Shown: positions 2 to 61,264, counted from the stretch's first letter. The stretch is DNA of 64,000 nt from Flavobacteriales bacterium (GCA_046295395.1 JBKBNH010000002.1:163584-227583); one strand, 5' to 3'. The notes: generated by a model from the letters alone, not told the origin. A program made the numbers and translations.

Positions 2-133
2 CCCGTTGGTCAAGGAACAGGACTTGGGCTTTCTATCACCTACAAAATTATCGAAACACACGAGGGAAACATTTCTTTTGAAAGCTCTCCGGAAAAAGGC
101 ACCTCATTCACTGTATGTTTGCCTATTAAATAG
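2..133 (+). CDS. Sensor histidine kinase, C-terminal HATPase fragment (5' end lies outside the window)
   Basis: Frame 2 translates to [43 protein letters not shown], which is the G2 box and lid of an HATPase_c domain. The stop codon is at 131-133, 3 nt before the next gene. Confidence 0.6.
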
Positions 134-136
134 CCC

Positions 137-1513
137 ATGAAAAAAAAGAAAATAAACATTCTGTATGTTGATGACGAGCGCATAAACCTGCTGGCGCTAA
201 AATCTACCTTCAGAAATGAGTTTACTGTTTTTACAGCAACAGACACAAACGAAGCAACAAAAATTCTTACAAATGAACCTATTCATGTAGTTTTTGCCGA
301 CCAAAGAATGCCCATAAAAACCGGGGTTGAGTTTTTTGAGGAGATAAAAAACATTTTTCCGCTCCCTATCAGGGTCTTAATAACAGCATACAGCGACATG
401 CAAAGTGTTATAGACGGTATAAACAAGGGGCATGTGTATAAATACCTTAAAAAACCGTGGGATGTAAACGAAATTAGGCTCGTTGTTAAAGAGGCTCATG
501 AGGTGTACAGTCTTCGCCGACAAAACATCTCCCTAATTAAAAAATATAAAGAACTATTTAATCAATCTTATGAACCTATTCTTTTGGTTAATACCGAAGG
601 GAAAATCTCTGAATGCAACCGAGCCGCCGAAGACCTTTTTGGCAAACAGATAACGCCCATTAACGGCAGGCCGATTAACGAAATTCTAATCGAATCGCCC
701 AACAATTTTATAAACCTGATTGTTGACCCCGGAGAGAATAAAGAAACAATATGCCGACTTAACTTAACTGGGGCAGAAGAAATTCCTTTTTTAGCTACAA
801 TAAGCGAAATAATCCTGACAGAAGCAGAATATTACATTCAAGTTAAACTGCAGGACATTTCCCAAAGGGAGAATTTCAAAAAAAAAATGCTCAAGGCTAT
901 ATACGAAGCACAAGACTCTGAAAGGCAAAGAATTTCGGCAGAACTACACGACAGTCTGGGCCAAGTTATAGCATTCACCAAGCTAAAAATCGACACCATT
1001 CTACTCTCTCAGGATAACTTAGGCGTAGTTAAGCCCGAATTAAATCAAATTATCGGTGTACTCGAATCATCTTTAGCTGAGTTGAACTCTATTTGCAACA
1101 AAACATTTCCTATTATTCTTTCAGAGGCCGGTTTAATTCCATCGTTAGAGGAACTTTCGCTTATGTATCAAAGCGATTTATTTTACATGGAAATTAATTC
1201 TCCGGACGAGTATAAAATACTTGATAAAAATATTGCGTTTAGCTTATACCGAATTATTCAAGAATTTACCAATAACGCCATAATACATGGCCAAGCAACA
1301 TGCGTTAGGATAAACTTCGAAAAAATCGCTGACACACAAAAAATTATCCTACACAATAACGGAAAACCATTTAATACGGAAAAAATAAAAAGCTATTCGA
1401 GTAGAGGATTAAAAAACATCTTGTCCAGAGCTGCTTCAATCAACGCCGAATTGAGTTTTATCAGCAGCGCAAAAGAAGGAACAACACTTACAATAGCCGT
1501 ACCCTTGGCTTAA
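137..1513 (+). CDS. Receiver-PAS-HisKA_3-HATPase hybrid kinase (REC domain N-terminal to the kinase)
   Basis: ATG start. N-terminal CheY-like receiver (ILYVDDE...VFADQRMP...KKPW). A PAS-like middle region. HisKA_3 H-box ELHDSLGQ. C-terminal HATPase. Confidence 0.85.
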   Translation: MKKKKINILYVDDERINLLALKSTFRNEFTVFTATDTNEATKILTNEPIHVVFADQRMPIKTGVEFFEEIKNIFPLPIRVLITAYSDMQSVIDGINKGHVYKYLKKPWDVNEIRLVVKEAHEVYSLRRQNISLIKKYKELFNQSYEPILLVNTEGKISECNRAAEDLFGKQITPINGRPINEILIESPNNFINLIVDPGENKETICRLNLTGAEEIPFLATISEIILTEAEYYIQVKLQDISQRENFKKKMLKAIYEAQDSERQRISAELHDSLGQVIAFTKLKIDTILLSQDNLGVVKPELNQIIGVLESSLAELNSICNKTFPIILSEAGLIPSLEELSLMYQSDLFYMEINSPDEYKILDKNIAFSLYRIIQEFTNNAIIHGQATCVRINFEKIADTQKIILHNNGKPFNTEKIKSYSSRGLKNILSRAASINAELSFISSAKEGTTLTIAVPLA

Positions 1514-4544: not shown

Positions 4545-5216
4545 TTGTATTCATTCAAAGTTGTGTTAATGAAAATAGGTATTGCAGATGATCATCCTTT
4601 GTACAGAAAAGGTTTAATCGATTTCTTAAAATCTAGCCTTAACCCGAGTGTTTTGTTCGAAGTTGACCGTTTAAATCTAGTTCTAAAGAATGTTTCAGTG
4701 CACAAGCCCGATGTTTTACTTCTAGACTTAAGCATGCCCGGAGATCCTTCTGTTTTTAAAATCATCGAACGATTAAAAAAAGATTTTACGTTGATGAAAA
4801 TAGTTGTGCTAACACTAAAAGAAGATGGAGAAACAGTGAGAAAGTGCTTTCAGAGTGGTGTAGACTCTTTTGTTTGCAAAAGCTCCTCCTCCAAAGAAAT
4901 AGTAAAGGCAATAACCACTGTGACTAATGGTAAAAAATACATTTGTAGCAAAATTACTAGTGATGTTGTTTCTACATTCAGTGATTATTTTGAAGAGCGA
5001 GCCGGCGAAATGAAATTAACAGAAGTTGAAAAAACCCTAATTACACTGGTTTGTGAGGAAAAAACCAATAAAGAGATTGCCGACGAACTCCAATTAAGTT
5101 CTAAAAGTATAGAGTTTAAAAAGCGGCTTTTGTTTAAAAAAATCGGTTGCAAAACTACCGTGGGACTTGTTAAATACGCTGTAACAAACAATCTGTTAAA
5201 AGCTAACCTTTCCTAA
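4545..5216 (+). CDS. NarL/FixJ (LuxR) family response regulator
   Basis: REC domain with acceptor Asp in LLLDLSMPG. C-terminal LuxR helix-turn-helix (KEIADELQLSSKSIEFKKRLLFKKIG). The true start is probably MKIGIADDH at 4569. Confidence 0.85.
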   Translation: MYSFKVVLMKIGIADDHPLYRKGLIDFLKSSLNPSVLFEVDRLNLVLKNVSVHKPDVLLLDLSMPGDPSVFKIIERLKKDFTLMKIVVLTLKEDGETVRKCFQSGVDSFVCKSSSSKEIVKAITTVTNGKKYICSKITSDVVSTFSDYFEERAGEMKLTEVEKTLITLVCEEKTNKEIADELQLSSKSIEFKKRLLFKKIGCKTTVGLVKYAVTNNLLKANLS

Positions 5217-8624: not shown

Positions 8625-9134
8625 TTATTGAGCAGCCTCATCCTTGGGCATGTAGTTTTCCAATTCGGTATCGAAAATGTACATCCCCGAATTGTCGTTG
8701 CCAATAAGATTAAGTTTATCCATAATCTTACGGGCCAAAGCTTCTTCTTCCAGCTGCTCGGATACGTACCACTGCATAAAATTGTGAGTGGTGTAGTCTT
8801 TTTCCTGCAAACAGATATGTACTACATTATTTATACTTTCGGTGACAGCTATTTCATGCTCTAGCAGACTTTTAAAAATTTCTTTTATGTTTTTAAATTC
8901 CTTTTTGGGTTGTTTCAACGCCGGAATTACCGCTTTTCCGCCACGCTCGTTTATAAATTTTACCAGCTTAAGCATGTGCGTGCGTTCTTCATCTGAATGT
9001 AAATAAAGAAATGAGGCTGTCCCGGCAAAACCGGCAGTCTCTGCCCACGAAGCCATCGCAAGGTAAAACTGCGAAGATTGTGCCTCCATGAGTACTTGAT
9101 TGTTTAGTGCGTCTTCTACTTTCTTGTTTAGCAT
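8625..9134 (-). CDS. ftn: Non-haem bacterial ferritin
   Basis: Ferritin-like di-iron motifs (LMEAQSSQFYLAMASWAE...HSDEERTHMLKLVKF). 169 aa. Confidence 0.85.
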   Translation of the reverse strand: MLNKKVEDALNNQVLMEAQSSQFYLAMASWAETAGFAGTASFLYLHSDEERTHMLKLVKFINERGGKAVIPALKQPKKEFKNIKEIFKSLLEHEIAVTESINNVVHICLQEKDYTTHNFMQWYVSEQLEEEALARKIMDKLNLIGNDNSGMYIFDTELENYMPKDEAAQ

Positions 9135-22204: not shown

Positions 22205-22756
22205 ATGGCGGTGAACGAAAAATATAAGGACGACAAAGCTCTAGTTGAAGGCTGCGCAAAAGGCGAAAGGTTGGCACAACAAGAGTTGTTTAGTCGTTTT
22301 TCGGGAAAAATGCTCTCGGTTTGTAAGCGATATGCAGAAAATCAAGAAGAGGCAGAAGATATGTTGCAAGAAGGGTTTTTAAAAACATTTGTAAAAATAG
22401 AGTTCTTTAAAAACGAAGGGTCGCTAGAGGGGTGGATTAGAAGAATAATGGTTAATACAGCGTTGGATTTATTAAGAAAAAACAAAAACTTAAAAAACAA
22501 CGTTGACCTAGAAACCACCTATAACCTTTCTTCGAACCAGGAAAATGCCCTTCAAAGCTTAGGGGCGGAGGAGTTGATGAAAATGTTAAATGAAATGCCG
22601 GTGGGTTACAGAACTGTTTTTAACCTGTTTGTAATAGAAGGATACAGCCACAAAGAAATAGGAGAAATGCTGGAAATATCTGAAAACACGTCAAAATCAC
22701 AATTTTCGCGAGCCCGGGCACACTTAAAGAACCTTTTGGAAAAATATTACGTCTAG
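22205..22756 (+). CDS. ECF-type RNA polymerase sigma-70 factor
   Basis: Region 2 (QEGFLKTFVKI...WIRRIMVNTALDLLRK) and region 4 HTH (YRTVFNLFVIEGYSHKEIGEMLEISENTSKSQFSRARAHLK). Confidence 0.85.
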   Translation: MAVNEKYKDDKALVEGCAKGERLAQQELFSRFSGKMLSVCKRYAENQEEAEDMLQEGFLKTFVKIEFFKNEGSLEGWIRRIMVNTALDLLRKNKNLKNNVDLETTYNLSSNQENALQSLGAEELMKMLNEMPVGYRTVFNLFVIEGYSHKEIGEMLEISENTSKSQFSRARAHLKNLLEKYYV

Positions 22757-22763
22757 TAGTAAA

Positions 22764-23858
22764 ATGGAAAAATATTACGATATAGAAAATCTTTTTAAAG
22801 AGGCTCTTCAAAATCATGAAAGCCCTGTTAACCCCGATTTATGGGTCAACTTATCGAATTCTTTAAGCGCGGGAGCAACAACAACTTCTGCCGCAGGCGC
22901 AGTCGTTGCAAAATCGTCGTTGATTAAATCCATCATCATGGGAGTTTCGGCAACAGCCGCAGTGGCAACCTCCGCTTATTTTATCGCAACCTCTTTTGCA
23001 GAAAAATCAGCGAATCAGCCGAAGGAGGAAATAGCACAAACAATTTTACCGGAACAAAACACTCCAAACAAAGAGGAAAATATAGCTGAAACAGAAAAAA
23101 TTGAGGAAAACAAAACACAAAAAAATCAGGAAAATAACCCCCTTTTAACGGGCTATCAACCAACTCATAAATCGGCCGCAGAATCTTTTAGCACGCCAAA
23201 ACACAAAAGAGATTTTGGCTACACGCCAAGCAGATTGCCGGATAAAAAACCAGATACCGCCCCTTCTGCAAAAGAAAGCCCAAAGCAGGAAAACGAAAAG
23301 CCACAAACAGAAGCCCAAGCCAACGAAAAGCCGGCCTTACCAAAATCGGTAGACATACACATAAGCAAAAACAAACCGGACGCTTTTGAAGAGGTTGTTA
23401 TAAAAAGTAGCCTGCCACAGGCTGAAAATACGTGGTCCTTGCCTGATGGAACCATAAAAATCGGCCCGGAACTAACCGTTTCCTTCGAAAAATATGGAGC
23501 AAATAAAATACAGCTTATTTCGACTCTTGAAAACGGTGAAGAACTAAACCAAACACGAATTATTCAGGTAAATCCAATATCCTCGATAGGAGAATTGCCC
23601 AATATCATTACGCCAAATAACGATGGCATAAATGATGAATATGTTGTAAGAATATACAATATTCAAGAATGGAGCTTGGTTGTTTTAAACACAAACGGAG
23701 CCGAAACGTTTAAGTCTTTCGATATTAACGATACGTGGAAAGGAACAGACCAAGCCGGAAACAGGCTGCCAATAGGATCATACCAGATAATAATCAAAGC
23801 CATAGGCACTGACGGTAAAATACATAAAGCTTACCAGATAGTTAAGCTCACGTATTAA
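22764..23858 (+). CDS. Anti-sigma-like membrane protein with a C-terminal CHU_C / T9SS type-B domain
   Basis: 8 nt downstream of the ECF sigma gene. About 50-aa cytoplasmic N-terminus. One TM segment (IIMGVSATAAVATSAYFIATSF). A P/E/K/Q-rich linker. C-terminal PNIITPNNDGINDEYVVRIYNIQEWSLVVLNTNG...GSYQIIIKA, matching the gliding-motility-associated C-terminal domain. Confidence 0.55.
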   Translation: MEKYYDIENLFKEALQNHESPVNPDLWVNLSNSLSAGATTTSAAGAVVAKSSLIKSIIMGVSATAAVATSAYFIATSFAEKSANQPKEEIAQTILPEQNTPNKEENIAETEKIEENKTQKNQENNPLLTGYQPTHKSAAESFSTPKHKRDFGYTPSRLPDKKPDTAPSAKESPKQENEKPQTEAQANEKPALPKSVDIHISKNKPDAFEEVVIKSSLPQAENTWSLPDGTIKIGPELTVSFEKYGANKIQLISTLENGEELNQTRIIQVNPISSIGELPNIITPNNDGINDEYVVRIYNIQEWSLVVLNTNGAETFKSFDINDTWKGTDQAGNRLPIGSYQIIIKAIGTDGKIHKAYQIVKLTY

Positions 23859-26893: not shown

Positions 26894-26976
26894 TACAGAA
26901 ATTGATTTAGAGGAAATGCAGCGCATTGTGCCGCATTTTATTTACTTTAGCTGCTTAAATTACTGAGGGTAAAAAC

Positions 26977-27330
26977 TTGAAAATTCTCAAAGCGATATTA
27001 ATAATTTTTTCATTGTTTCTGTTTTCTGAAGCAAACGCCCAGTACAGAGATCCGTCAAAAAATAAAGCAAAAAAAGAAAAAAACCGGCAGGGCTCTCCAG
27101 TTTCTTTCAGAAAGAAAAATGCAGAACGAGCACTCCAAGCAGAATCAGACCCCTTTAAAAGCAAAAAACGAAAATCGAACAAGGATAAAACAAAAGAATC
27201 AGACCCTTTTAAATCTGGAGGAAAAAGAAAGAAGAAAAAGGAAAAAAAATATAAGAACTCATCAAAAGTTAGAAAAACACAAAAAACAAAAGACCCCTTT
27301 AAAAAACCTAAAAAAAACCAAAAAGGATAA
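26977..27330 (+). CDS. Secreted, very basic Lys-rich low-complexity protein with DPFK repeats
   Basis: Signal peptide MKILKAILIIFSLFLFSEANAQ. The mature region is about 45% Lys/Arg, with DPFKS twice and DPFKK once. The DNA shows a gaccc(c)ttttaaa repeat. Confidence 0.45.
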   Translation: MKILKAILIIFSLFLFSEANAQYRDPSKNKAKKEKNRQGSPVSFRKKNAERALQAESDPFKSKKRKSNKDKTKESDPFKSGGKRKKKKEKKYKNSSKVRKTQKTKDPFKKPKKNQKG

Positions 27331-27430
27331 CTTTGTAAAAAATGTATTTGGCACGATTTTTAGCCGAACGTGCTTCAAAAGCAAAATAATTCATAAATTG
27401 CGTAACTTCAGAAGGAAAACAAAAGTATAA

Positions 27431-27955
27431 GTGACCTGTTTAAACAAAATATTGGTTTTAGTCCTATCCTTTGTGGTATTTAACACACGAGGGCAGCAGG
27501 ATTTTAAAACGAATAATAATCTTAAAGCAATTTATGTATACAATTTTACCACACTGGTTGATTGGCCTAAAGAATTTAAGCAAAACGATTTTGTGATAGG
27601 GGTGCTTGGCGATCAGGGTTTAGTGGATGTTTTGACACAAAAATATTCATCAAAAAATGTAGGCGCACAGCCTATAAAAATCAAAGCATACAAAAACGAG
27701 ACAGAAGTTGATCAGTGTCATATCTTGTTTATTGCCAACAGCCAGTCGGCAACCGTAACGAGGCTTTCAAAAAAACTGACCAAATACAGCACACTTATAG
27801 TAGCGGAGTCTGCAGGGGCACTAGAATCAGGGGCTTGTATTAATTTTACAGCAAAAGATAATAAATTAGCGTACGAATTGAGTAAATCAAACACAGAACG
27901 AATCAAATTAATATTGGGCAAAACCATATTAGAATTGGCGGTAAAAGTTAGTTAA
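27431..27955 (+). CDS. YfiR-like periplasmic regulator (DUF4154)
   Basis: GTG start plus a signal peptide. LKAIYVYNFTTLVDWP...CHILFI...LIVAESAGALESGACINF, which matches the YfiR pattern (LKAAFLYNFAKF.EWP ... INF). Confidence 0.65.
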   Translation: MTCLNKILVLVLSFVVFNTRGQQDFKTNNNLKAIYVYNFTTLVDWPKEFKQNDFVIGVLGDQGLVDVLTQKYSSKNVGAQPIKIKAYKNETEVDQCHILFIANSQSATVTRLSKKLTKYSTLIVAESAGALESGACINFTAKDNKLAYELSKSNTERIKLILGKTILELAVKVS

Positions 27956-28854
27956 TGAGCAAAAAGCTTTACATAGCGATCATATTTTGTTTACTGATGG
28001 TTTCAGGAGCTTATGCACAGTCTAAAAACTGGGAAAAAGCACTTAAGGCATATCAGGAAGAAAACTTTGATGACGCCATAAAGTTCAGTGATAATTCTAT
28101 TATGGATGATGCTGAAAGTAAAGACGCTTACACTTGGCATGTTCGTGGATTTATTTACAGAGCCGCACACAAAAAACTTGATGACAGCAGCCCAGCCTCT
28201 AAACTAAGAGAAACATCGATAGAATCCTTTCTCAAAAGTATTGAGCTTGATTCGAATAAAGAATTTGAAATTAAGAACAAAAGCGCAGTAATTAATTTAG
28301 CAAAAACCTATTTTAATGACGCCGTAAGAGCATTAAGCGCTGAAACTTTTGAAGACGCTATTGAATATTATGCCAAATACAAGGACGTTACCCGCCGGGT
28401 AGAGCCTGATTTCAGCTTTAAACAAACCGATATAGACTTTAACAACACCCTTGGCGCAGTATACCAAAACATATATGAAAATGATAAGGGCGCAAACCAA
28501 AATTTTATGCAAAAAGCCATTGATGTATATAAGACCACTATAGAAATAGACTCGCTTAACTATAATGCGAACTACAATATAGGGGTTTTATATTACAATC
28601 AGGGTGTAGATTTAATTTTGTCTATTGACCCGGAAGCACCACTTCCTATTGTAATAGAAACTCAAGAAATGTGTGCAGAGTTATTTATACGGTCTTTACC
28701 ATATATGAAAAGAGCGTATAATTTAAAACCAACAAATAGAGAAACCATCATTGGTCTTGCGGGCATTTATTTTAACTTGAATGATAACGAAAAGTCTAAA
28801 TTTTTTAGCGACCTTTTGAAGGAGGTAGAAGATAACGACTCACCAAACAGATAG
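27955..28854 (+). CDS. Secreted hypothetical protein (possibly helical, TPR-like)
   Basis: Signal peptide MSKKLYIAIIFCLLMVSGAYAQ. 1-nt overlap with the upstream gene. No confident family. Confidence 0.5.
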   Translation: MSKKLYIAIIFCLLMVSGAYAQSKNWEKALKAYQEENFDDAIKFSDNSIMDDAESKDAYTWHVRGFIYRAAHKKLDDSSPASKLRETSIESFLKSIELDSNKEFEIKNKSAVINLAKTYFNDAVRALSAETFEDAIEYYAKYKDVTRRVEPDFSFKQTDIDFNNTLGAVYQNIYENDKGANQNFMQKAIDVYKTTIEIDSLNYNANYNIGVLYYNQGVDLILSIDPEAPLPIVIETQEMCAELFIRSLPYMKRAYNLKPTNRETIIGLAGIYFNLNDNEKSKFFSDLLKEVEDNDSPNR

Positions 28855-28866
28855 GAAAAAAACAAA

Positions 28867-30720
28867 ATGAGGTTTACTATAGGCAGACGTATAGGTCTTG
28901 GTTTCGGAATAGTGATATTTCTCATTTTGATTATTTTCTATTTTACCTTCAATACCCTTCGTCAGGGCTCAGATACGTTAAACGAAAGTATCGAAAAAAA
29001 CAAACGATTTAATGATGTAACTCAACCAACTATAGAGTTGCTCATTCGTTTGAAAGAAACCATTTTTGAGACTAAAACACTTATTAATAAGTGGGCAACA
29101 GAACAAACGCGCGAAGACGATCAAAGCAAAATCAGACTTAAGAAAATCACCACAGAAATAGTTCCCTCAACAGTTAGACGATTAGAATCGCTTGCCTCGG
29201 AATGGTCTTCAGAAGAAGACAAGGGTCGGCTACAGCAGAACATCTTCAAAAACATAGAAGAGCTTTTTTCCATGCACGAAACTTACGTTACTTCTATTTT
29301 GGTAGACTTCGATAGTTATAACGACCCATCAGCCTTGTTTTTGGCCAGGCCGGCAGTGCAGCCCGATGGAGAAATTAGCAAAAAAACCCAGCAAATTACA
29401 AACGAGCTTGATGATTTCATCAACAGAAAAAACGCCGAAGCGGCAAGTCAAAAAGATGAAATGAATAAATCTTTTGAGGTAACCGAAACAGGATTTGCTT
29501 GGTTGAAACTTTTAGTTGTTTTTTTTGGTTTAGCCTTATTTATAGGCACGGTTGTGATAGCCACCCTAACCTCTAGGTCTATTGTGGGGCCGGTTAACGA
29601 ACTTAAGTTAATACTTTTTGATTTAGGGAAAGGAATTTTCCCAAAGACAAAAATGAAAGCAAGAAATGACGAAATCGGAGAAATGACTCTTGCGCTGGAT
29701 AACTTAGTTGAAGGCCTGAAAAGAACAACCGACTTTTCTAGAGAGGTTGGTTCCGGCAACTTCGAATACGACTATCAACCACTTTCAGAAGAAGATGTTT
29801 TGGGACATGCATTGCTAAAAATGCGTGATGAACTAGCTGAAAACGAAAGAGTTCTTGAGCAAAAAGTGGTAGAAAGAACCGAAGAGGTCGTTCGGCAGAA
29901 AGAAGAAATCGAAAACCAACGACAAAAACTGGAAGAGCTATACAAAGACGTAACAGATAGCATTAGGTATGCAAAACGCCTTCAGGACTCTATTCTTCCA
30001 CCAGATTCTTTTGTAAAACAATTATTGCCGGAATCTTTCGTTTTATTCAGACCAAAAGACATCGTAAGCGGCGATTTTTACTGGATGGAAGAAACAAATA
30101 ACAAAATACTTTTTTCGGCGGTAGATTGCACCGGACATGGTGTTCCTGGAGCATTTATGAGTATAGTTGGAGCAAATGCTTTAAATCAGGCGGTTGCTGC
30201 TTCAAAACTAGATACTCCCGGATTAATTTTAGACGAATTACACCGGCTGTCTTCAGAAGCGCTGAATAAAACTTCAGATGAAAAATCTGTGAGGGACGGT
30301 ATGGACTTAGCCATGTGCGCTCTTTCTAAAGATTACAAAACATTAGAATATGCCGGAGCAAATAATCCGCTTTACATATTAAGAAAAGATGAAATTATAC
30401 AGACTAAAGCGGATAAATTTCCAATAGGAGGCTTCGAAGTAGGCCAGCATAACTATGCTACCCACACATTTGACCTGCAGGATGGCGACATGATATACAT
30501 ATTTTCTGATGGTTACGCAGATCAGTTTGGAGGCTCAAAAGGTAAAAAATTCATGTATCGCCAGTTCAGGGAGGTGCTTATGGAAATAAGACATTTACCC
30601 ATGAACAAACAAAGGCAAGAGCTTGAGCGAATCATGGAAGAATGGAAAGGAGTCTACGAACAGGTGGATGATGTGTTGGTAATAGGAGTGAAAATTAACT
30701 TAAATCAAACTAAACCATGA
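28867..30720 (+). CDS. Membrane HAMP-domain PP2C (SpoIIE/RsbU-type) Ser/Thr phosphatase
   Basis: N-terminal TM. About 180-aa extracytoplasmic region. Second TM. HAMP. Coiled coil. PP2C motifs (SGDFYWMEE...FSAVDCTGHGVPGAFMS...DGYADQFGG). Confidence 0.8.
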   Translation: MRFTIGRRIGLGFGIVIFLILIIFYFTFNTLRQGSDTLNESIEKNKRFNDVTQPTIELLIRLKETIFETKTLINKWATEQTREDDQSKIRLKKITTEIVPSTVRRLESLASEWSSEEDKGRLQQNIFKNIEELFSMHETYVTSILVDFDSYNDPSALFLARPAVQPDGEISKKTQQITNELDDFINRKNAEAASQKDEMNKSFEVTETGFAWLKLLVVFFGLALFIGTVVIATLTSRSIVGPVNELKLILFDLGKGIFPKTKMKARNDEIGEMTLALDNLVEGLKRTTDFSREVGSGNFEYDYQPLSEEDVLGHALLKMRDELAENERVLEQKVVERTEEVVRQKEEIENQRQKLEELYKDVTDSIRYAKRLQDSILPPDSFVKQLLPESFVLFRPKDIVSGDFYWMEETNNKILFSAVDCTGHGVPGAFMSIVGANALNQAVAASKLDTPGLILDELHRLSSEALNKTSDEKSVRDGMDLAMCALSKDYKTLEYAGANNPLYILRKDEIIQTKADKFPIGGFEVGQHNYATHTFDLQDGDMIYIFSDGYADQFGGSKGKKFMYRQFREVLMEIRHLPMNKQRQELERIMEEWKGVYEQVDDVLVIGVKINLNQTKP

Positions 30721-31304
30721 ATGAATGGTGGATTGAACTTTCCGGCACAGAAAAAGTATTTTGGATAATAGCTATTCCGGCTACTATCATTTTTCTTTTT
30801 GTTTTGGTTATCAACCTAATTGCCGGCATCGATAGCGGAGACCTCGACTCCTCTGACGGGTCTTTTGATGCAGACATGGCCGATGGCATAGGGTTTCAGT
30901 TCATTACATTTAAAACACTCCTAGCCTTTTTTACCATTTTTGCTTGGACAGGTATCGCGTGCCTTGATGCTCAATTTTCAACCACAGTATCTGTTTTAAT
31001 AGCAACCGGAGCAGGAACGGTAATGATGGCGCTTACCGCTTGGTTTTATTATTTTATGGCTAAAATGTCTGAGAGCGGAACACTTAAAATAAACAAGGCC
31101 ATTGGCGCAATAGGCGAGGTATATTTAACCATACCAGCCAATGCCCAAACGGTAGGAAAAGTACAAATAAAACTCCAAGGCTCACTCCATGAATTAGACG
31201 CCATAACAGACGATGAAAAAGATATAACCAGAGGCAAATTAGTAAGAGTAACCGATGTTGTAAACAACACCATATTAAAAGTAACCCTTAACACAAACAC
31301 ATAA
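30717..31304 (+). CDS. NfeD-family membrane protein (flotillin partner)
   Basis: Three TM segments plus a C-terminal OB-fold-like domain. 4-nt overlap with the upstream gene. Immediately precedes the SPFH gene, the usual NfeD position. Confidence 0.65.
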   Translation: MNEWWIELSGTEKVFWIIAIPATIIFLFVLVINLIAGIDSGDLDSSDGSFDADMADGIGFQFITFKTLLAFFTIFAWTGIACLDAQFSTTVSVLIATGAGTVMMALTAWFYYFMAKMSESGTLKINKAIGAIGEVYLTIPANAQTVGKVQIKLQGSLHELDAITDDEKDITRGKLVRVTDVVNNTILKVTLNTNT

Positions 31305-36577: not shown

Positions 36578-36603
36578 AAAAAAGCCTTTATAGGCTTTTT
36601 ATT
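36578..36603 (+). terminator. Rho-independent terminator of the signalling operon
   Basis: aaaAAGCCTttatAGGCTTttt followed by a T-rich run, 6 nt after the cyclase stop. Confidence 0.55.
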
Positions 36604-56252: not shown

Positions 56253-56965
56253 TAGGGCGAATACTCTTATTTTTATGCTTATTGATTCCGGGGCTACTGA
56301 ATGCTCAGGGATTGTTTAGCTATTTTAAGCTTACTGCTGATGATTCTCGCTATGAACGTTTTGATCGCCTTGCAGTTGACCTCAACTACGACAATTGGGA
56401 TAATATGCCCAACGGAGTAAACTCCCGGCTGGTTTCGCTGGGAGTAAATGCTTATTTCTACAAAGACATTCCTTTTTCCCGATATAGCAACATGGCATTT
56501 GCCATAGGGTTAGGTATAAGCAGCCACAATGTTCACCACAATTCAGAAATTGTGTACCGTATATCGCCCGAGGGAAATTCCTATACGGCGTTTGAACCCT
56601 ATCCGGATGGCTATAAATACAGAAAAAACAAATTATCAACCAGTTACCTAGAGGTTCCGGTTGAATTTCGCTTTAGAACAAAATATAAAAAAGACGACAC
56701 GCCTTACAAGTTAAGATTCAGGTTTTATCCGGGATTTAAGGCAGGATACTTGCTGAGTTCGCATGTTAAATTAAAGGACGCCGACACGAAGGTAAAGATA
56801 TACAACATCAATAACTTGATGCAGTACCGCTATGGGCCCACATTACGCCTTACTTTTCATCGTTTAAGTGTGTATGGGTTTTATTCGCTAACTCCGTTGT
56901 TTACAGAAGGCCGCGGAGATGAGGTGTACCAGTATTCACTGGGCTTGTCGCTGATGATTTTTTAA
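56216..56965 (+). CDS. Outer-membrane beta-barrel protein (OMP_b-brl_2/PorT-like), hypothetical
   Basis: Probable start MIGRILLFLCLLIPGLLNAQ at 56249, a signal peptide. Amphipathic beta-strands. C-terminal F. Confidence 0.5.
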   Translation: MALARKFKQEKMIGRILLFLCLLIPGLLNAQGLFSYFKLTADDSRYERFDRLAVDLNYDNWDNMPNGVNSRLVSLGVNAYFYKDIPFSRYSNMAFAIGLGISSHNVHHNSEIVYRISPEGNSYTAFEPYPDGYKYRKNKLSTSYLEVPVEFRFRTKYKKDDTPYKLRFRFYPGFKAGYLLSSHVKLKDADTKVKIYNINNLMQYRYGPTLRLTFHRLSVYGFYSLTPLFTEGRGDEVYQYSLGLSLMIF

Positions 56966-57370
56966 TAAAGCGAGAGAATTGTTTTCTGCGTTGCGCATGG
57001 CTTTTACTTCACTTAGGGTTTTGTCTTTAAAACCAATTAAATGAAGTATGCCGTGAATTATTACCCGGAGAAGTTCTTCCTCAAAGGGTACGTTCAGTTT
57101 TTGGGCGTTTTCTTCTACACGGTCTACGCTGATTAATAAATCCCCGGAAATGGATTTCCCTTCACAATAATCGAAAGTAATAATATCTGTATAGAAGTCG
57201 TGTTGCAGGTACTGCCGATTTATTTCAAGCAGGTATTTGTCCGAACAAAAAACCAAAGACAAGTCTCCAGTTTTTTTATAGTGTTCAGCTATTACTGCTT
57301 TTATCCAGTTTTTAATATCGGCTTTATTCTGAAGTGAAAACTTCACATCAGCGTTTTGAAATTGAATCAC
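56936..57370 (-). CDS. ybeY: rRNA maturation endoribonuclease YbeY
   Basis: HGILHLIGFKD, a zinc-binding H..H....H motif. 144 aa. Confidence 0.85.
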   Translation of the reverse strand: MIQFQNADVKFSLQNKADIKNWIKAVIAEHYKKTGDLSLVFCSDKYLLEINRQYLQHDFYTDIITFDYCEGKSISGDLLISVDRVEENAQKLNVPFEEELLRVIIHGILHLIGFKDKTLSEVKAMRNAENNSLALLKNHQRQAQ

Positions 57371-57379
57371 AGCAGGACT

Positions 57380-57799
57380 TTAGTTGTAAGAAATACTAAA
57401 TAATAGTTCAACCCGCTTCCCTTCGTCTAGAAACGTCACTTCATCGGCCAAATTTTTCATAAGAAAAACGCCTCTTCCGTTGGGTTTTTCTATGTTTTCG
57501 GGGTCGGTTGGGTCAGGAAGTTTTTCATAATCGAATCCCGGACCTTCGTCTTCTACCAAAAAGGCAAGTTTGCTGTCTTTTTGTTCAAACGAAACCGTAA
57601 CGGATTTTTCGCTTATCATTTTGTTTCCGTGGCACATGGCGTTGTTTACGGCCTCTGTCATGGCGATAAGGATATTTCCGTAATAATCTTCCTTGACGTT
57701 GAGTTCTGCACAGACCTCGTCAATCATTTTTTCTACTAAGCTTATGTTCTCAGTTTTTGTAGGAAAGCTAATGCTTTGTGCGAGTAAAGATGATTCCAT
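57380..57799 (-). CDS. RsbW/SpoIIAB-like anti-sigma regulatory Ser-protein kinase (HATPase_c_2)
   Basis: 139 aa. N box EAVNNAMCHGN. G boxes VEDEGPGF and NGRGVFLM. Confidence 0.7.
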   Translation of the reverse strand: MESSLLAQSISFPTKTENISLVEKMIDEVCAELNVKEDYYGNILIAMTEAVNNAMCHGNKMISEKSVTVSFEQKDSKLAFLVEDEGPGFDYEKLPDPTDPENIEKPNGRGVFLMKNLADEVTFLDEGKRVELLFSISYN

Positions 57800-57808
57800 A
57801 ATTAAAGT

Positions 57809-60800
57809 TTAATCCACCTCATTGAAGTAGCCATTTACGAGATTCTTATAGTAAGGTTTCAAACTAGGCGGAATTGTTTTAAGAAGTTCAATTTCTTTTT
57901 CTTTTTTTCTTTTGTACTCTAGAAATTCTTTAGGGTCGGAAGCAATATCTTCGGCAGATTTCCCTTCTCGTTTGTTGTCAAATTCTCTTTCTCTTTCCGC
58001 TTTTTCATGCTCCAGAAGCCGGGTCATGATGTCGCGCTGTCTTTTCATGGTATTGTTGTCGATGCGTTTGTTCACGATGTCTTCTTCTAGTTTTTCCATC
58101 TCTTCAGCAATTTTTTTCAGGCTATTGCCTCTTCCGGTGCCGTCCTGATTTAACTCTTGGGCCAGACGCTGTAATTGTTCTCTGAGTGCGGCTTGTTGTG
58201 CTGCCAGTTTTGCTAGTCCTTCGCTCATTGAGGGCTGTCCTTCCCCCTCGCCTTCTCCGTTTGCGCCCCCGCTGCCGCCTTTTCCTCCTAGTTTTTGTCC
58301 ACCGGATTTGTTACTTTCACCTTCTTCTCCCTCGCCTTTTTTCCCCGGACTTTTTCCGCCTTCCTGTTCCCCTTTTTCCATCTGTTGTTTCATTTTTTCG
58401 AGTTGCTGCGAAAGTTGTTGCTGCATATCTTTTAGCGTAGGGATACTCATGGGCTTGGTTTTGGAAGACCCGCTTCCACCCGGCTTGTCGCACGAGCCTG
58501 AGCCCGATGCCATGCTCATGGAGTTTTGCATTTGTTCCATCGCTTCGTTCAACATGAGAGCCAGATTGTTAGCATGCATCATGATACTTTGTTGTTTGCG
58601 CCGCACTTCGGAAGTTCTTCTTTCTGTTAGGTCTTCCGGGAGTTTGCTGAAATAGCGCTGAATTTCGCCCATTTCGCGAGAGATGTATGAACTCAGTTGT
58701 GGTACTCGCTTAGCAAGGGCTTCGAGTGAGTCGGCCAAAACTTTTGAATCGTTTTGCAGTTTACGTTGTTGTTGACCCAGGCCCACGTAAGCGGGGTCGC
58801 GATCGTTCAGAAATTTGAATTTTTCCATCAGCTCTTCCTGCTGAAAGCTAAATTCGATGAGGTTGGCAAGCAGTAAGCGCAGCGACTTCAGGTCTTCTTG
58901 TATACTTTGCTGCTGATCTTCCCGTTGCATTTGTTTCATCTTATTAGCCATTTCCTGCATTTTTTCAGCGGCCTTTTTTTGGTTTTGTGCTGCTTTTTTC
59001 TGATTGTTTTTTTGCAGGTTGTCCATGCTGTTTTGCTGCTCTTGATCTATCTGCTGGTTTTCTTCCTTAAAGTCGTCGGTAGTTCGTTTGTTTTCGAGTT
59101 CTTCGTTTAGTTGCAGCAATTCTTTTTGATCTTCTTTCAGTTTATCAAACTTATCATTTAGTGCTTTTTGTTTCTGTTCAGCCTGTTCTTTAGAAAACGC
59201 CTTATTTTCGATTTGCTTGCTGAGTTCTTCTTGCTGTTTTGCTAAAGCTTCTGTTTTTTGAATTAGGTTTTCCAGTTTTTGGTCAAACTCTACCTGCTTG
59301 AAAATTTCGAGGCTACGATCAAGTTGTTTTTTCAGGCCTTCGTTAGAGAAGTCAAAATTTTCTAGCTTTTCCAGAAGTTTATCTTTATTCAGCTTATCCA
59401 TAAGTTGCTGAAGTTCTTCGAAAAGTTTTTTCATTTCGTCACTCATCAACTCATCAAAGAGTTTTTGAAGCTCTTCTTGTTTTTTCAGTAGTTCGGGGTC
59501 TGGTTCGGTAAAGTCTTTTTGCTGGTTGAAGTTTTTCTCGGTCTGTTGTTTTATTTTTTCCAAGTCGTTCTGAACAGACTGGTGCTTGTTCAGCAAGTCC
59601 TCTAGTTTTGCTCGGTCTTGCCAATCGGTGTTTTTCTTTTGCAGCAGGTCGTTTTTCAGATTTTGAAAATCTTTTTGCAGTTGCGAAGCCTTGCTTAGCG
59701 TAGAAGCCAAGTTTTCTTTAATTTCCTTATTCCCTTTTTCGGTGTTTTCGGCTATTTCATCCAGCGAAGGGGCTTGAAAAACTTTTACGGGCGAGCGGCA
59801 AACTTTAGCACCATTCACCCCGTCGTTGTCCCACACCTGAAAGAAATATTCCACAGACTCTTCGGGTTTTAGCTCGAGTTCGTCCATTTTCCAGTAGTAG
59901 AAAAACTCTTCCCGATTAAAAGAGCGATTCAGTTTTATTTCTATCGATTTAAAAGGCTCTGCTTTCCGGTCTCTGTTAAGTTTTCGGAAGTTGAAGGTAA
60001 GCCGGGTAAAGCCATAGTCATCTGAAATGGCTCCACTAAAATACCTTTGTTTTACTGAGTTACTGTCTATTTTTTCTTCTACGGTAATTCGAGGATATTC
60101 GTCTTTAACCACGGTTAAGGAGTATTTAACCGTGTCCGGATTTTTTACCAAATTATTCTCGGTGTGTATAGCATATCGGATAGAGCGATGTGCCTTGTAA
60201 GCCGACTCAAATGTTTTGTCCGAAACTTTTTTTACAACGAGTGCAGAGTCTCCTGCCTGAAGGTATAAGTTTGCCGTGTTTACAGTAAGAAACCGCCAGT
60301 TTATTTGTGTGCCCTCAGGGATAATTAAATCTCCGGTATTTTTCAGAATTTCTTTTTGTCTGTTTATGTAAGCCGGATAAACCAGTTGCGCCTCAAAATT
60401 CATAAGTACAGGCTTGGGTAAAACGACAAGCTCAAAGGTTGATGAATGAACTTCGTCTGCTTTAAGAATGAATTTTTGATTGACGTTTACATTTCTGAAT
60501 CGGTAGGAGAAGGTGGTTTTATTCTGTTTGTCAAGTTTAAAATTGTTTTCGTCTATTTGCACGTATACGCGCTCGGGAATTTCTTTTCCGCTAAGAGTCA
60601 CTTCCAGTAAAAAATCCTCGTTTTGAATCACCGTTAACTCATCATTCAGCACTTCAAACTTGAATGGGGCAGGGGTTTCGAAATAGGTTCCGTGATACAT
60701 TAGCCGTTTTGTTGGCTCTTTTATCATGTCGGAGTTGTATATCCATATACCCAAAAACAGTAATAGGGGCAACAAAAAGTACTTAAGCTGCCGGCGGTTT

Positions 60801-61264
60801 TCGCTTAGGTTAATTACCGAGGCAAAAGGCACAGGAGAGAGAGTTTTGATGCGCTGATTGATGCTCGCATAAACCAGTTCCATATGCTCCAGGGGCAGTG
60901 CATGGGCGTTGCTGGTTAGTTGCAGGGTGTTTAGCAGTTTGTCTTTTACGTCGGTTAATTTGCCACCTATAAGCGAAGCAGCGTCTTCGTAAGACATTCT
61001 TTTGCCAATACCAAACAGTCCGGAGAAGGGTTTTATGATATACCGAAATAAAATGTACGATGTAGAGACCAAGAAAAAGTAAAACAAAATTGTTCTTACA
61101 GGGGTGCCGAATCGACCAAAGTACTCTGATAGCAGCAGTGTAATGAACAGGGCAAGGGTTATTCCGCCAAATAGAATAGAACCTTTAATGAGTTCATTCT
61201 TGTAGTATTTGCGAATAAACTCATCAAGTTTTTGGTATAATATTTCTTTTTTGTCGCTGCTCAC
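57809..61264 (-). CDS. Large membrane-anchored coiled-coil protein of unknown function
   Basis: Two or three N-terminal TM helices. About 450-aa mixed domain. About 450-aa Q/E/K-rich coiled coil. G/S/E-rich disordered segment. C-terminus ...IPPSLKPYYKNLVNGYFNEVD. Confidence 0.6.
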   Translation of the reverse strand: MSSDKKEILYQKLDEFIRKYYKNELIKGSILFGGITLALFITLLLSEYFGRFGTPVRTILFYFFLVSTSYILFRYIIKPFSGLFGIGKRMSYEDAASLIGGKLTDVKDKLLNTLQLTSNAHALPLEHMELVYASINQRIKTLSPVPFASVINLSENRRQLKYFLLPLLLFLGIWIYNSDMIKEPTKRLMYHGTYFETPAPFKFEVLNDELTVIQNEDFLLEVTLSGKEIPERVYVQIDENNFKLDKQNKTTFSYRFRNVNVNQKFILKADEVHSSTFELVVLPKPVLMNFEAQLVYPAYINRQKEILKNTGDLIIPEGTQINWRFLTVNTANLYLQAGDSALVVKKVSDKTFESAYKAHRSIRYAIHTENNLVKNPDTVKYSLTVVKDEYPRITVEEKIDSNSVKQRYFSGAISDDYGFTRLTFNFRKLNRDRKAEPFKSIEIKLNRSFNREEFFYYWKMDELELKPEESVEYFFQVWDNDGVNGAKVCRSPVKVFQAPSLDEIAENTEKGNKEIKENLASTLSKASQLQKDFQNLKNDLLQKKNTDWQDRAKLEDLLNKHQSVQNDLEKIKQQTEKNFNQQKDFTEPDPELLKKQEELQKLFDELMSDEMKKLFEELQQLMDKLNKDKLLEKLENFDFSNEGLKKQLDRSLEIFKQVEFDQKLENLIQKTEALAKQQEELSKQIENKAFSKEQAEQKQKALNDKFDKLKEDQKELLQLNEELENKRTTDDFKEENQQIDQEQQNSMDNLQKNNQKKAAQNQKKAAEKMQEMANKMKQMQREDQQQSIQEDLKSLRLLLANLIEFSFQQEELMEKFKFLNDRDPAYVGLGQQQRKLQNDSKVLADSLEALAKRVPQLSSYISREMGEIQRYFSKLPEDLTERRTSEVRRKQQSIMMHANNLALMLNEAMEQMQNSMSMASGSGSCDKPGGSGSSKTKPMSIPTLKDMQQQLSQQLEKMKQQMEKGEQEGGKSPGKKGEGEEGESNKSGGQKLGGKGGSGGANGEGEGEGQPSMSEGLAKLAAQQAALREQLQRLAQELNQDGTGRGNSLKKIAEEMEKLEEDIVNKRIDNNTMKRQRDIMTRLLEHEKAEREREFDNKREGKSAEDIASDPKEFLEYKRKKEKEIELLKTIPPSLKPYYKNLVNGYFNEVD

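Follow-up and report, generated by a model that had tools for sequence, protein, structure and literature searches.

What does a YfiR-like periplasmic protein act on when the membrane signaller encoded with it ends in a protein phosphatase instead of a GGDEF domain? The question is raised by a 64,000-nucleotide (nt) stretch of a Flavobacteriales bacterium genome (GCA_046295395.1, JBKBNH010000002.1:163584-227583), referred to throughout as the window, in which all coordinates are counted from the first letter. A preliminary description of the interval 27431-30720 reported a co-transcribed pair, a DUF4154 (YfiR-family) gene and a gene for a HAMP-PP2C phosphatase standing in place of YfiN. Our analysis indicated that the interval holds three plus-strand, co-directional open reading frames (ORFs), not two: the genes are tightly packed, but the two named are not adjacent, and a conserved TPR gene between them had been missed. 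We propose that the DUF4154 protein, the TPR protein and the phosphatase, in which a modelled periplasmic four-helix bundle (4HB) precedes the HAMP and PP2C domains, form one envelope-sensing unit across Bacteroidota that works by the mechanism set out below, and we give this reading a probability of about 0.5. The linkage of the three genes, hereafter the triad, is well supported; the mechanism we infer.

Species-representative genomes were scanned with an alignment of the phosphatase as the query, which gave 80 loci, and these were typed with hidden Markov models, one per gene plus one for each half (sensor, catalytic) of the phosphatase; loci entered the count only if at least 1.7 kb of upstream sequence was present. 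All 18 phosphatases that share the sensor have a DUF4154 gene and then a TPR gene directly upstream on the same strand, as against none of 44 PP2C paralogs with other N-termini (Fisher p = 5e-16), many of which are Reg_prop/Y_Y_Y fusions; the preferred adjacency of DUF4154 genes to this phosphatase in relatives, on which the preliminary description depended, is thus borne out. A metagenome scan queried with the sensor alone returned 80 further loci, 71 of them complete triads. In eight others the contig stops within 1.1 kb, with the TPR gene still visible in six, and the one genuine exception (L126; related loci are cited by L-numbers) has its sensor gene directly after truA. In every complete triad, the TPR gene sits between the other two. 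Carriers are labelled Weeksellaceae, Vicingaceae, Crocinitomicaceae, Sphingobacteriaceae, Cytophagales and unclassified Bacteroidia, so that the triad is spread across Bacteroidota. Triad or Bacteroidota-type PP2C genes, 45-48% identical to the window protein, were also encountered under the labels Akkermansia sp. (L022) and Hydrocarboniphaga daqingensis (L064, L079), most likely owing to binning contamination rather than horizontal transfer.

The PP2C domain was rejected as the determinant of DUF4154 linkage, given that none of the 44 paralogs shows it. Judged from gene order, the linkage instead tracks the sensor domain and not the PP2C output, a pattern that is supported by both scans and that a periplasmic interaction would predict. 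At L087 (180-4159), a DUF4154 gene lies 8 nt 5' of the gene for a hybrid histidine kinase of 1141 amino acids (aa), which has a homologous sensor followed by GAF, HisKA, HATPase and two receiver domains, with no TPR gene; this is direct evidence, at the level of gene arrangement, that the DUF4154-sensor pairing has been reused with a kinase output. A sensor-bearing ORF also directly follows DUF4154 at L004, with no TPR gene, and at L088 a TonB-receptor/DUF4154 pair is found on the opposite strand, 2-5 kb from the kinase gene. Neither DUF4154 nor TPR accompanies the GAF-kinase at L089 or the GAF-PP2C proteins at L090 and L091. DUF4154 and the sensor are each modular, and the three-gene combination marks one well-populated clade.

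The first product matches the Pfam family PF13689, 'YfiR/HmsC-like', at 106.9 bits (cutoff, 24.9; E = 1.3e-30; model positions 2-142 of 143), and the DUF4154 protein placed by the preliminary description at the start of the interval is therefore real. Its N-terminus combines a hydrophobic segment with a predicted signal peptide cleaved between TRG and QQ, and all orthologs have signal peptides. In the structure model (predicted local distance difference test score [pLDDT], 90.9), the top 14 Foldseek matches in the PDB are YfiR chains (probability, 1.0; TM-score up to 0.77). A single-sequence phmmer search of the PDB gave no match, and a 48-sequence profile was needed, which aligns to YfiR residues 40-186 (E = 5e-6). 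Four residues of the partner-binding surface of YfiR (F151, E163, I169, Q187) were compared in that alignment. E163, a contact of YfiB R96 that has also been linked to YfiN binding (PMC4655355, PMC4887326), corresponds to the conserved E149 and F151 to the conserved hydrophobic I137; Q187 falls at the alignment end. The protein scores below the NCBIfam equivalog 'regulatory sequestration protein YfiR' (23 bits; cutoff, 85) and also below the nearest named subfamily, YfiR_like_TOL0243 (108.7; cutoff, 125). An NCBI protein identical to it over 100% of residues already bears the name 'YfiR family protein', so the individual gene annotations are not new. The model further matches a 'substrate-binding protein' of Rhodothermus marinus (Foldseek 6K1X, 5Z6V, 8WGL; E about 5e-5), which may be a DUF4154/YfiR-like protein under another name. 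DUF4154 relatives at up to 41% identity occur as tandem pairs after truA (L006, 5324-6510) or behind TonB-dependent receptors, without a sensor; at L005 (3944-6528) and L088 (8572-11446), the gene stands beside a TonB-dependent receptor with a Plug domain and adjoins no signalling protein.

The start of the TPR gene overlaps the DUF4154 stop codon, and its product matches TPR_11 (E = 3.6e-8) and TPR_19 (E = 3.8e-7), the latter also matched by 15 of 19 orthologs, with one canonical repeat near aa 185-217. Orthologs carry type I signal peptides ending in AQ or GQ and no conserved lipobox cysteine; on these sequence features, the protein is predicted to be soluble and periplasmic, unlike the lipoprotein YfiB. 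Membership of a named TPR family (BamD, CpoB, YfiB-like and similar) was rejected, since profile matches in the PDB comprised only generic or designed TPR proteins.

Hydrophobic segments at aa 3-33 and 207-241 of the phosphatase flank an external region of about 175 aa in hydropathy profiles. HAMP scores below threshold in the window sequence (19.5 bits; cutoff, 25; aa ~229-279) but is supported by precomputed Pfam matches in most orthologs and by a helix-loop-helix in the model, and the arrangement of transmembrane (TM) segment, periplasmic region, TM segment and HAMP that had been described holds. SpoIIE-type PP2C is a clear match (PF07228; 65.5 bits; cutoff, 25; E = 7.8e-18), and GGDEF gave none. 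The metal-binding motifs are invariant in 38 orthologs: D403 (SGDFYW), D420 (VDCTGHG), D548 and D552 (SDGYADQFGG) and D601/D602. An RsbU/SpoIIE-type output, as first named, is thus correct at the family level, but the closest solved structure is SiaA-PP2C (6K4E; E = 1.5e-35; aa 330-608), with SpoIIE far behind (E = 1.4e-3).

The sensor is where the likeness to YfiN ends. Modelled with 62 sequences (pLDDT, 87), the sensor half is wholly helical, TM1 continuing as a long helix that is followed by three more periplasmic helices, TM2 and HAMP, and the PDB structures closest to it are the NarQ sensor-TM-HAMP fragment (probability, 1.0) and two chemoreceptor ligand-binding domains of the 4HB type, Vc1313-LBD (TM-score, 0.83; 2.5 Å) and MCP2201. 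Pfam sensor families, including CHASE8, 4HB_MCP and CHASE3, did not match the periplasmic domain even at E ≤ 10. The periplasmic domain of YfiN, classed as PAS by Malone et al. (PMC3375315), is CHASE8, assigned by Pfam to the Cache-like, PAS-like clan (PMC8846402). A YfiN-type sensor was rejected on the missing CHASE8 match together with the four-helix-bundle model, so the phosphatase takes the place of YfiN in topology only, not by homology. A word-index search with the sensor half found only 6 proteins; an exhaustive profile search was used instead and found 2,419 cluster representatives. Among its best matches, the same sensor-HAMP module is fused to PP2C, PAS-PP2C, GAF-PP2C, GAF-histidine kinase and histidine kinase outputs, and also to a hybrid kinase with two receiver domains.

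Divergence within the triad is uneven. Mean pairwise identity is 39% for DUF4154, 32% for the TPR protein and 30% for the periplasmic bundle, compared with 55% for the PP2C domain and 63% for the linker. The divergence of the first three is mutually correlated (r = 0.74-0.83, as against r = 0.54-0.61 with the PP2C domain), and partial correlations controlling for PP2C stay at 0.6-0.74, which is consistent with co-evolution of the three periplasmic parts.

In the mechanism that we propose, the DUF4154 and TPR proteins would both be exported to the periplasm and act on the four-helix-bundle sensor of the phosphatase. The YfiR-like protein would dock on the bundle and lock one signalling state, and the TPR protein would compete for, sequester or bridge the YfiR-like protein, a role like that of YfiB towards YfiR, with unrelated proteins. 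A periplasmic or envelope cue would alter these contacts, and the change would pass through TM2, HAMP and the coiled-coil linker to switch a dimeric, SiaA-like PP2C domain, which would dephosphorylate a phospho-Ser/Thr switch protein encoded elsewhere in the genome. Because SiaA is a far nearer match to the PP2C domain than SpoIIE is, a SiaC-type substrate is as plausible as an STAS protein of the RsbV type. In this lineage, an NfeD-like/flotillin pair and a large sensor adenylate cyclase continue the operon, and membrane-microdomain and cyclic AMP (cAMP) signalling may therefore receive the output. In this scheme, the contacts themselves, the direction of regulation, the cue and the substrate are all predicted.

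Several observations weigh against it. The sensor fold differs from that of YfiN, so the YfiR-YfiN contacts cannot be transferred to this system. YfiR I169 aligns to the non-conserved T155, and of the two YfiR disulfides (C71-C110 and C145-C152), which are tied to redox control and folding, only the equivalent of C110 is kept (C96), C71, C145 and C152 pairing with non-cysteine positions of the DUF4154 profile. The correlated divergence could reflect nothing but a shared faster evolution of periplasmic proteins. Sensor homologues without a DUF4154 or TPR neighbour (L028, L089-L091, L126) suggest that the bundle is able to signal without either. Conversely, DUF4154 is not always a sensor partner, given that some of its genes are solitary, in tandem or beside TonB-dependent receptors, and the family probably has roles beyond gating sensors. 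Finally, no substrate gene linked to the triad was found, so the substrate would have to be encoded elsewhere.

That last result comes from neighbour clustering and probe searches over about 170 related loci (1.75 Mb), by which STAS, RsbW or any other recurrent partner near the triad was rejected. Clustering of neighbours revealed no recurrent small switch protein or kinase near triads, and no RsbW-like gene was found in these loci. STAS-like genes were confined to three paralog loci (L062, L063, L075) and never stood beside a triad; L062 and L063 show that STAS genes exist in metagenome-assembled genomes of related Flavobacteriales. The neighbours that did recur at triad loci were ferritin (11 loci), a divergent extracytoplasmic function (ECF) sigma factor (5) and Usp (4-7). 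Ferritin is encoded on the same strand as the phosphatase, 1.5-3 kb 5' of the phosphatase start, or 6.7 kb in a single case (L001, 5425-5934; L002, 5403-5909; L010, 3502-4017; and 8 others), and the one in the window is distant (8625-9134, minus strand). Its nearness to the triad could indicate an iron or oxidative-stress connection, or plain synteny.

The alternative that survives best keeps the physical coupling and changes its logic from repression or sequestration to ligand presentation: a liganded DUF4154 protein would dock on the bundle and activate it, in the manner of MBP on Tar or TorT on TorS, with the TPR protein as a scaffold. Sensors of the Tar/NarQ four-helix-bundle type, to which the triad sensor belongs by its model, are known to use periplasmic binding proteins as adaptors, and the gene linkage fits such a co-receptor equally well. 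In its fold, YfiR is similar to one half of a type I periplasmic binding protein (PMC4655355), the DUF4154 model matches ABC-type binding proteins as well as the Rhodothermus marinus protein mentioned above, and vitamin B6 and L-Trp have been found bound in a hydrophobic pocket of YfiR (PMC4887326). The affinities reported there for these small molecules are in the ten-millimolar range, however, and DUF4154 is single-lobed, without a two-lobe ligand clamp, while the role of the TPR protein becomes no clearer than under the gating scheme. We consider this account unlikely, though it deserves to be kept in view.

Co-expression without contact is a good deal less probable. Under this explanation, the DUF4154 and TPR proteins would serve a separate envelope process, such as TonB-linked uptake or iron handling, and merely share an operon with the sensor. 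It draws on the DUF4154 genes that stand without a sensor beside TonB-dependent receptors (L005, L088) or in tandem (L006), on the upstream ferritin gene in 11 triad loci and on the sensor homologues that function without these partners. A fixed order of overlapping or nearly overlapping genes in about 90 loci from several families, with 0 of 44 paralogs sharing it, would nevertheless be unusual for proteins that never meet; the periplasmic parts track each other in divergence; and YfiR and HmsC, which alone in the DUF4154 family have been characterised, both work through binding to a sensor (PMC3375315).

The preliminary description itself had read the locus as a YfiR-gated partner-switching input and had named an RsbW-like gene as the candidate downstream partner. 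That gene (57380-57799, minus strand) does encode a 139-aa RsbW-like protein with a good HATPase_c_2 match (E = 4.3e-25), but it lies 27 kb from the triad on the other strand. It sits between a DUF4175 gene (57809-61264) and ybeY (56936-57370), as an orphan anti-sigma-type kinase in a housekeeping context. No STAS gene is present in the window, as had been stated: ten small ORFs were scanned with Pfam, and among all ORFs of at least 45 aa the best E reached with a STAS profile built to cover Bacteroidota was 1.9. SpoIIE-type PP2C paralogs are numerous in Bacteroidota (58 paralog loci were counted). Reg_prop/Y_Y_Y beta-propeller sensors are a frequent fusion partner, and in some cases two or three of the genes stand in tandem (L030-L032, L035, L048, L061, L084 and others). 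With so many paralogs in these genomes, a single RsbW has no specific tie to the triad phosphatase, and the RsbW-like gene is no likelier as its partner than any other gene of the genome. What stands of the earlier claim is the coupling of a YfiR-like gene to a HAMP-PP2C sensor, which follows the sensor; the RsbW/STAS link does not. A full circuit in which a YfiR-gated YfiN analogue controls a sigma factor through this kinase and an RsbV-type STAS protein is about as improbable as co-expression without contact, for although the DUF4154 protein, the topology and the SpoIIE-type PP2C domain are real and STAS genes occur near PP2C paralogs in related Flavobacteriales (L062, L063, L075), it overlooks the TPR gene, the sensor is not YfiN-like, the catalytic domain is nearer SiaA than SpoIIE, and the kinase gene is remote in the window, with no RsbW-like gene in the related loci.

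The features of the locus are collected in Table 1.

Table 1. Features of the triad locus and its surroundings, with residue ranges for the parts of the phosphatase.
Feature	Coordinates (nt)	Residues (aa)	Strand	Basis or remark
Small secreted lysine-rich ORF, 117 aa	26977..27330		+	ORF call, no Pfam match; possible accessory gene
TAACTTTG, putative Bacteroidota -7 promoter motif (TAnnTTTG)	27328..27335		+	Consensus match only, ~100 nt 5' of DUF4154 start codon
YfiR-family (DUF4154) periplasmic protein, 174 aa	27431..27955		+	Pfam PF13689; GTG start, cleavable signal peptide
Periplasmic TPR protein, 299 aa	27955..28854		+	TPR_11, TPR_19; signal peptide AYA/Q, no lipobox
Membrane sensor Ser/Thr phosphatase, 617 aa	28867..30720		+	Hydropathy, SpoIIE PP2C, HAMP, sensor model
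Phosphatase TM1		~9-30		
Phosphatase periplasmic four-helix bundle	28957-29487	31-207		
Phosphatase TM2		208-232		
Phosphatase HAMP	29563-29736	~233-290		
Phosphatase coiled-coil linker		291-385		
Phosphatase PP2C domain	30022-30702	386-612		
Membrane protein, 195 aa, weakly NfeD-like	30717..31304		+	Three hydrophobic segments; NfeD C-terminal domain E=0.053, sub-threshold
Flotillin/SPFH (Band_7) protein, 460 aa	31310..32692		+	Band_7 E=1.4e-29
Sensor adenylate/guanylate cyclase, 1298 aa	32676..36572		+	Reg_prop E=5e-53, Guanylate_cyc E=1.9e-51, Y_Y_Y E=2.7e-15
Bidirectional hairpin terminator-like site	36579..36600		.	Nine-pair stem, T-run on both strands, 7 nt past cyclase stop

Between 27431 and 36572, six genes either overlap or are separated by at most 12 nt. 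The DUF4154 and TPR genes share 1 nt (TAATG), and 12 nt separate the TPR and phosphatase genes; the phosphatase and NfeD-like genes overlap by 4 nt, the NfeD-like and flotillin genes are 5 nt apart, and the flotillin and cyclase genes overlap by 17 nt. No terminator-like site was seen between the first three genes. As judged from this layout, the genes most likely form a single transcription unit that reaches past 30720, and its end is placed near 36600 on the grounds of the tight packing and the hairpin 3' of the cyclase gene. Upstream, TAACTTTG is the sole match to its consensus in 26894-27431, against a window background of 0.48 per kb; a sigma-70 promoter scan found 28 sites where 24.7 were expected, with a model that does not represent Bacteroidota promoters.

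The lysine-rich ORF upstream encodes a signal peptide, a mature N-terminus beginning Q-YRDPS and repeated DPFK/DSFK motifs. Across the window, L001 (5945-6364) and L002 (5964-6380) its length is 117-139 aa, and homologues stand on the same strand 5' of the triad at L001, L002, L092, L098, L107, L110 and L114. Restricted to the closest relatives, the ORF could be a fourth periplasmic component in this sub-clade.

Downstream of the phosphatase, the flotillin scores 164 bits against NCBIfam FloT (cutoff, 700), and the cyclase is laid out as a Reg_prop beta-propeller, Y_Y_Y, a TM segment, the catalytic domain and a C-terminal HD-type region, the HD domain being seen in orthologs. The six-gene order is the same in all three orthologous loci with 53-60% phosphatase identity, including that of Parvicella tangerina. 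An NfeD-like gene occupies this position only in L001-L003, L092 and L127, and the NfeD-like/flotillin pair is confined to the closest relatives, whereas an ORF with a cyclase catalytic domain follows the phosphatase in 17 of the 58 triad loci with enough downstream sequence, after a 4-nt gap in seven. On these distributions, the NfeD-like, flotillin and cyclase genes were rejected as core members, which leaves the triad as the core and makes the cyclase link lineage-specific. Loci with a following cyclase include L001-L003, L007, L014, L097, L114, L135, L140 and L145, and the NfeD-like/flotillin pair intervenes in the window and its closest relatives. Elsewhere, the window holds a kinase with receiver, PAS, HisKA_3 and HATPase domains (137-1513, plus strand) and a LuxR-type response regulator (4545-5216, plus strand), as well as an ECF sigma factor followed by a CHU_C (type IX secretion) protein (22205-23858, plus strand); none of these signalling genes is linked to the triad in related loci.

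Set beside known systems, the triad resembles in outline YfiBNR of Pseudomonas aeruginosa and HmsCDE of Yersinia pestis, in which three genes likewise encode a secreted protein of the YfiR fold, a signaller of the TM/periplasmic/TM/HAMP type beside it and a second periplasm-facing partner. The differences are these: the YfiN sensor is CHASE8/PAS-like whereas that of the triad is modelled as a four-helix bundle; YfiB is an OmpA/Pal-like outer-membrane lipoprotein whereas a soluble TPR protein is the third partner here; most of the disulfide cysteines of YfiR are missing; and the gene order (R-like, TPR, sensor) is unlike that of YfiBNR. The YfiR-YfiN core is itself modular, its outputs having been swapped for GGDEF-EAL, HPT, histidine kinase and MCP domains (Malone et al. 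2012, PMC3375315). The output is GGDEF in YfiN and PP2C in the triad, and PP2C is not among the outputs listed in that paper or in the supplements searched.

SiaA of P. aeruginosa, a membrane HAMP-PP2C phosphatase acting on a switch protein, shares with the triad phosphatase two TM segments, HAMP and PP2C (PMC7647112). It is also the best NCBIfam match, but at 228.8 bits against an equivalog cutoff of 700, with only aa 284-610 aligned. Its SiaABCD partners, the kinase SiaB, the substrate SiaC and the diguanylate cyclase SiaD, were not seen near the triad in searches that included no DUF1987/SiaC-specific one of the loci. The siaA gene is followed by siaBCD and is not known to have a DUF4154 or TPR gene upstream. 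RsbU and SpoIIE phosphatases share the SpoIIE-family PP2C domain, the sequence tie to SpoIIE itself being weak, and chlamydial RsbU, a membrane phosphatase with a periplasmic sensor domain, offers a precedent for periplasmic input; these systems have no counterpart of the two accessory periplasmic proteins, and the triad has no linked RsbV or RsbW. NarQ/NarX and Tar-type sensors have the same TM1/4HB/TM2/HAMP module that is predicted here, but their outputs are kinase or chemotaxis signalling domains rather than a phosphatase, and the triad sensor has no Pfam-level match to 4HB_MCP or CHASE3.

The idea of a YfiR-sensor core with swapped outputs is already known, as are membrane HAMP-PP2C phosphatases (SiaA, chlamydial RsbU) and the name 'YfiR family protein'. 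In the literature that we searched, a PP2C output with a YfiR-family protein, the pairing of such a protein with a four-helix-bundle sensor not homologous to that of YfiN, an obligatory TPR partner and the wide and strict conservation of the triad in Bacteroidota all appear to be undescribed. Among the SpoIIE-type sensor phosphatases of Bacteroidota, apparently a large and mostly unstudied family, the triad is a well-defined and widely conserved case (about 90 loci), and cultured carriers exist, such as Parvicella tangerina. A wider generalisation is tentative and, in our view, rather doubtful: that DUF4154/YfiR proteins are general periplasmic regulators able to dock on non-homologous sensor folds and form, with the TPR protein, a portable input module gating Ser/Thr-phosphatase and, in some lineages, histidine-kinase signalling, which is wired here through the operon to flotillin microdomains and an adenylate cyclase. 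If this were true, YfiR-type envelope sensing would for the first time be tied to protein-phosphatase or cAMP signalling, and not to cyclic di-GMP (c-di-GMP). YfiR is known almost entirely from c-di-GMP control in proteobacteria; if the YfiR-like protein does gate the phosphatase, the family would extend to another phylum, another sensor fold and another signalling chemistry, Ser/Thr dephosphorylation, and a TPR protein would be a new third component, replacing YfiB.

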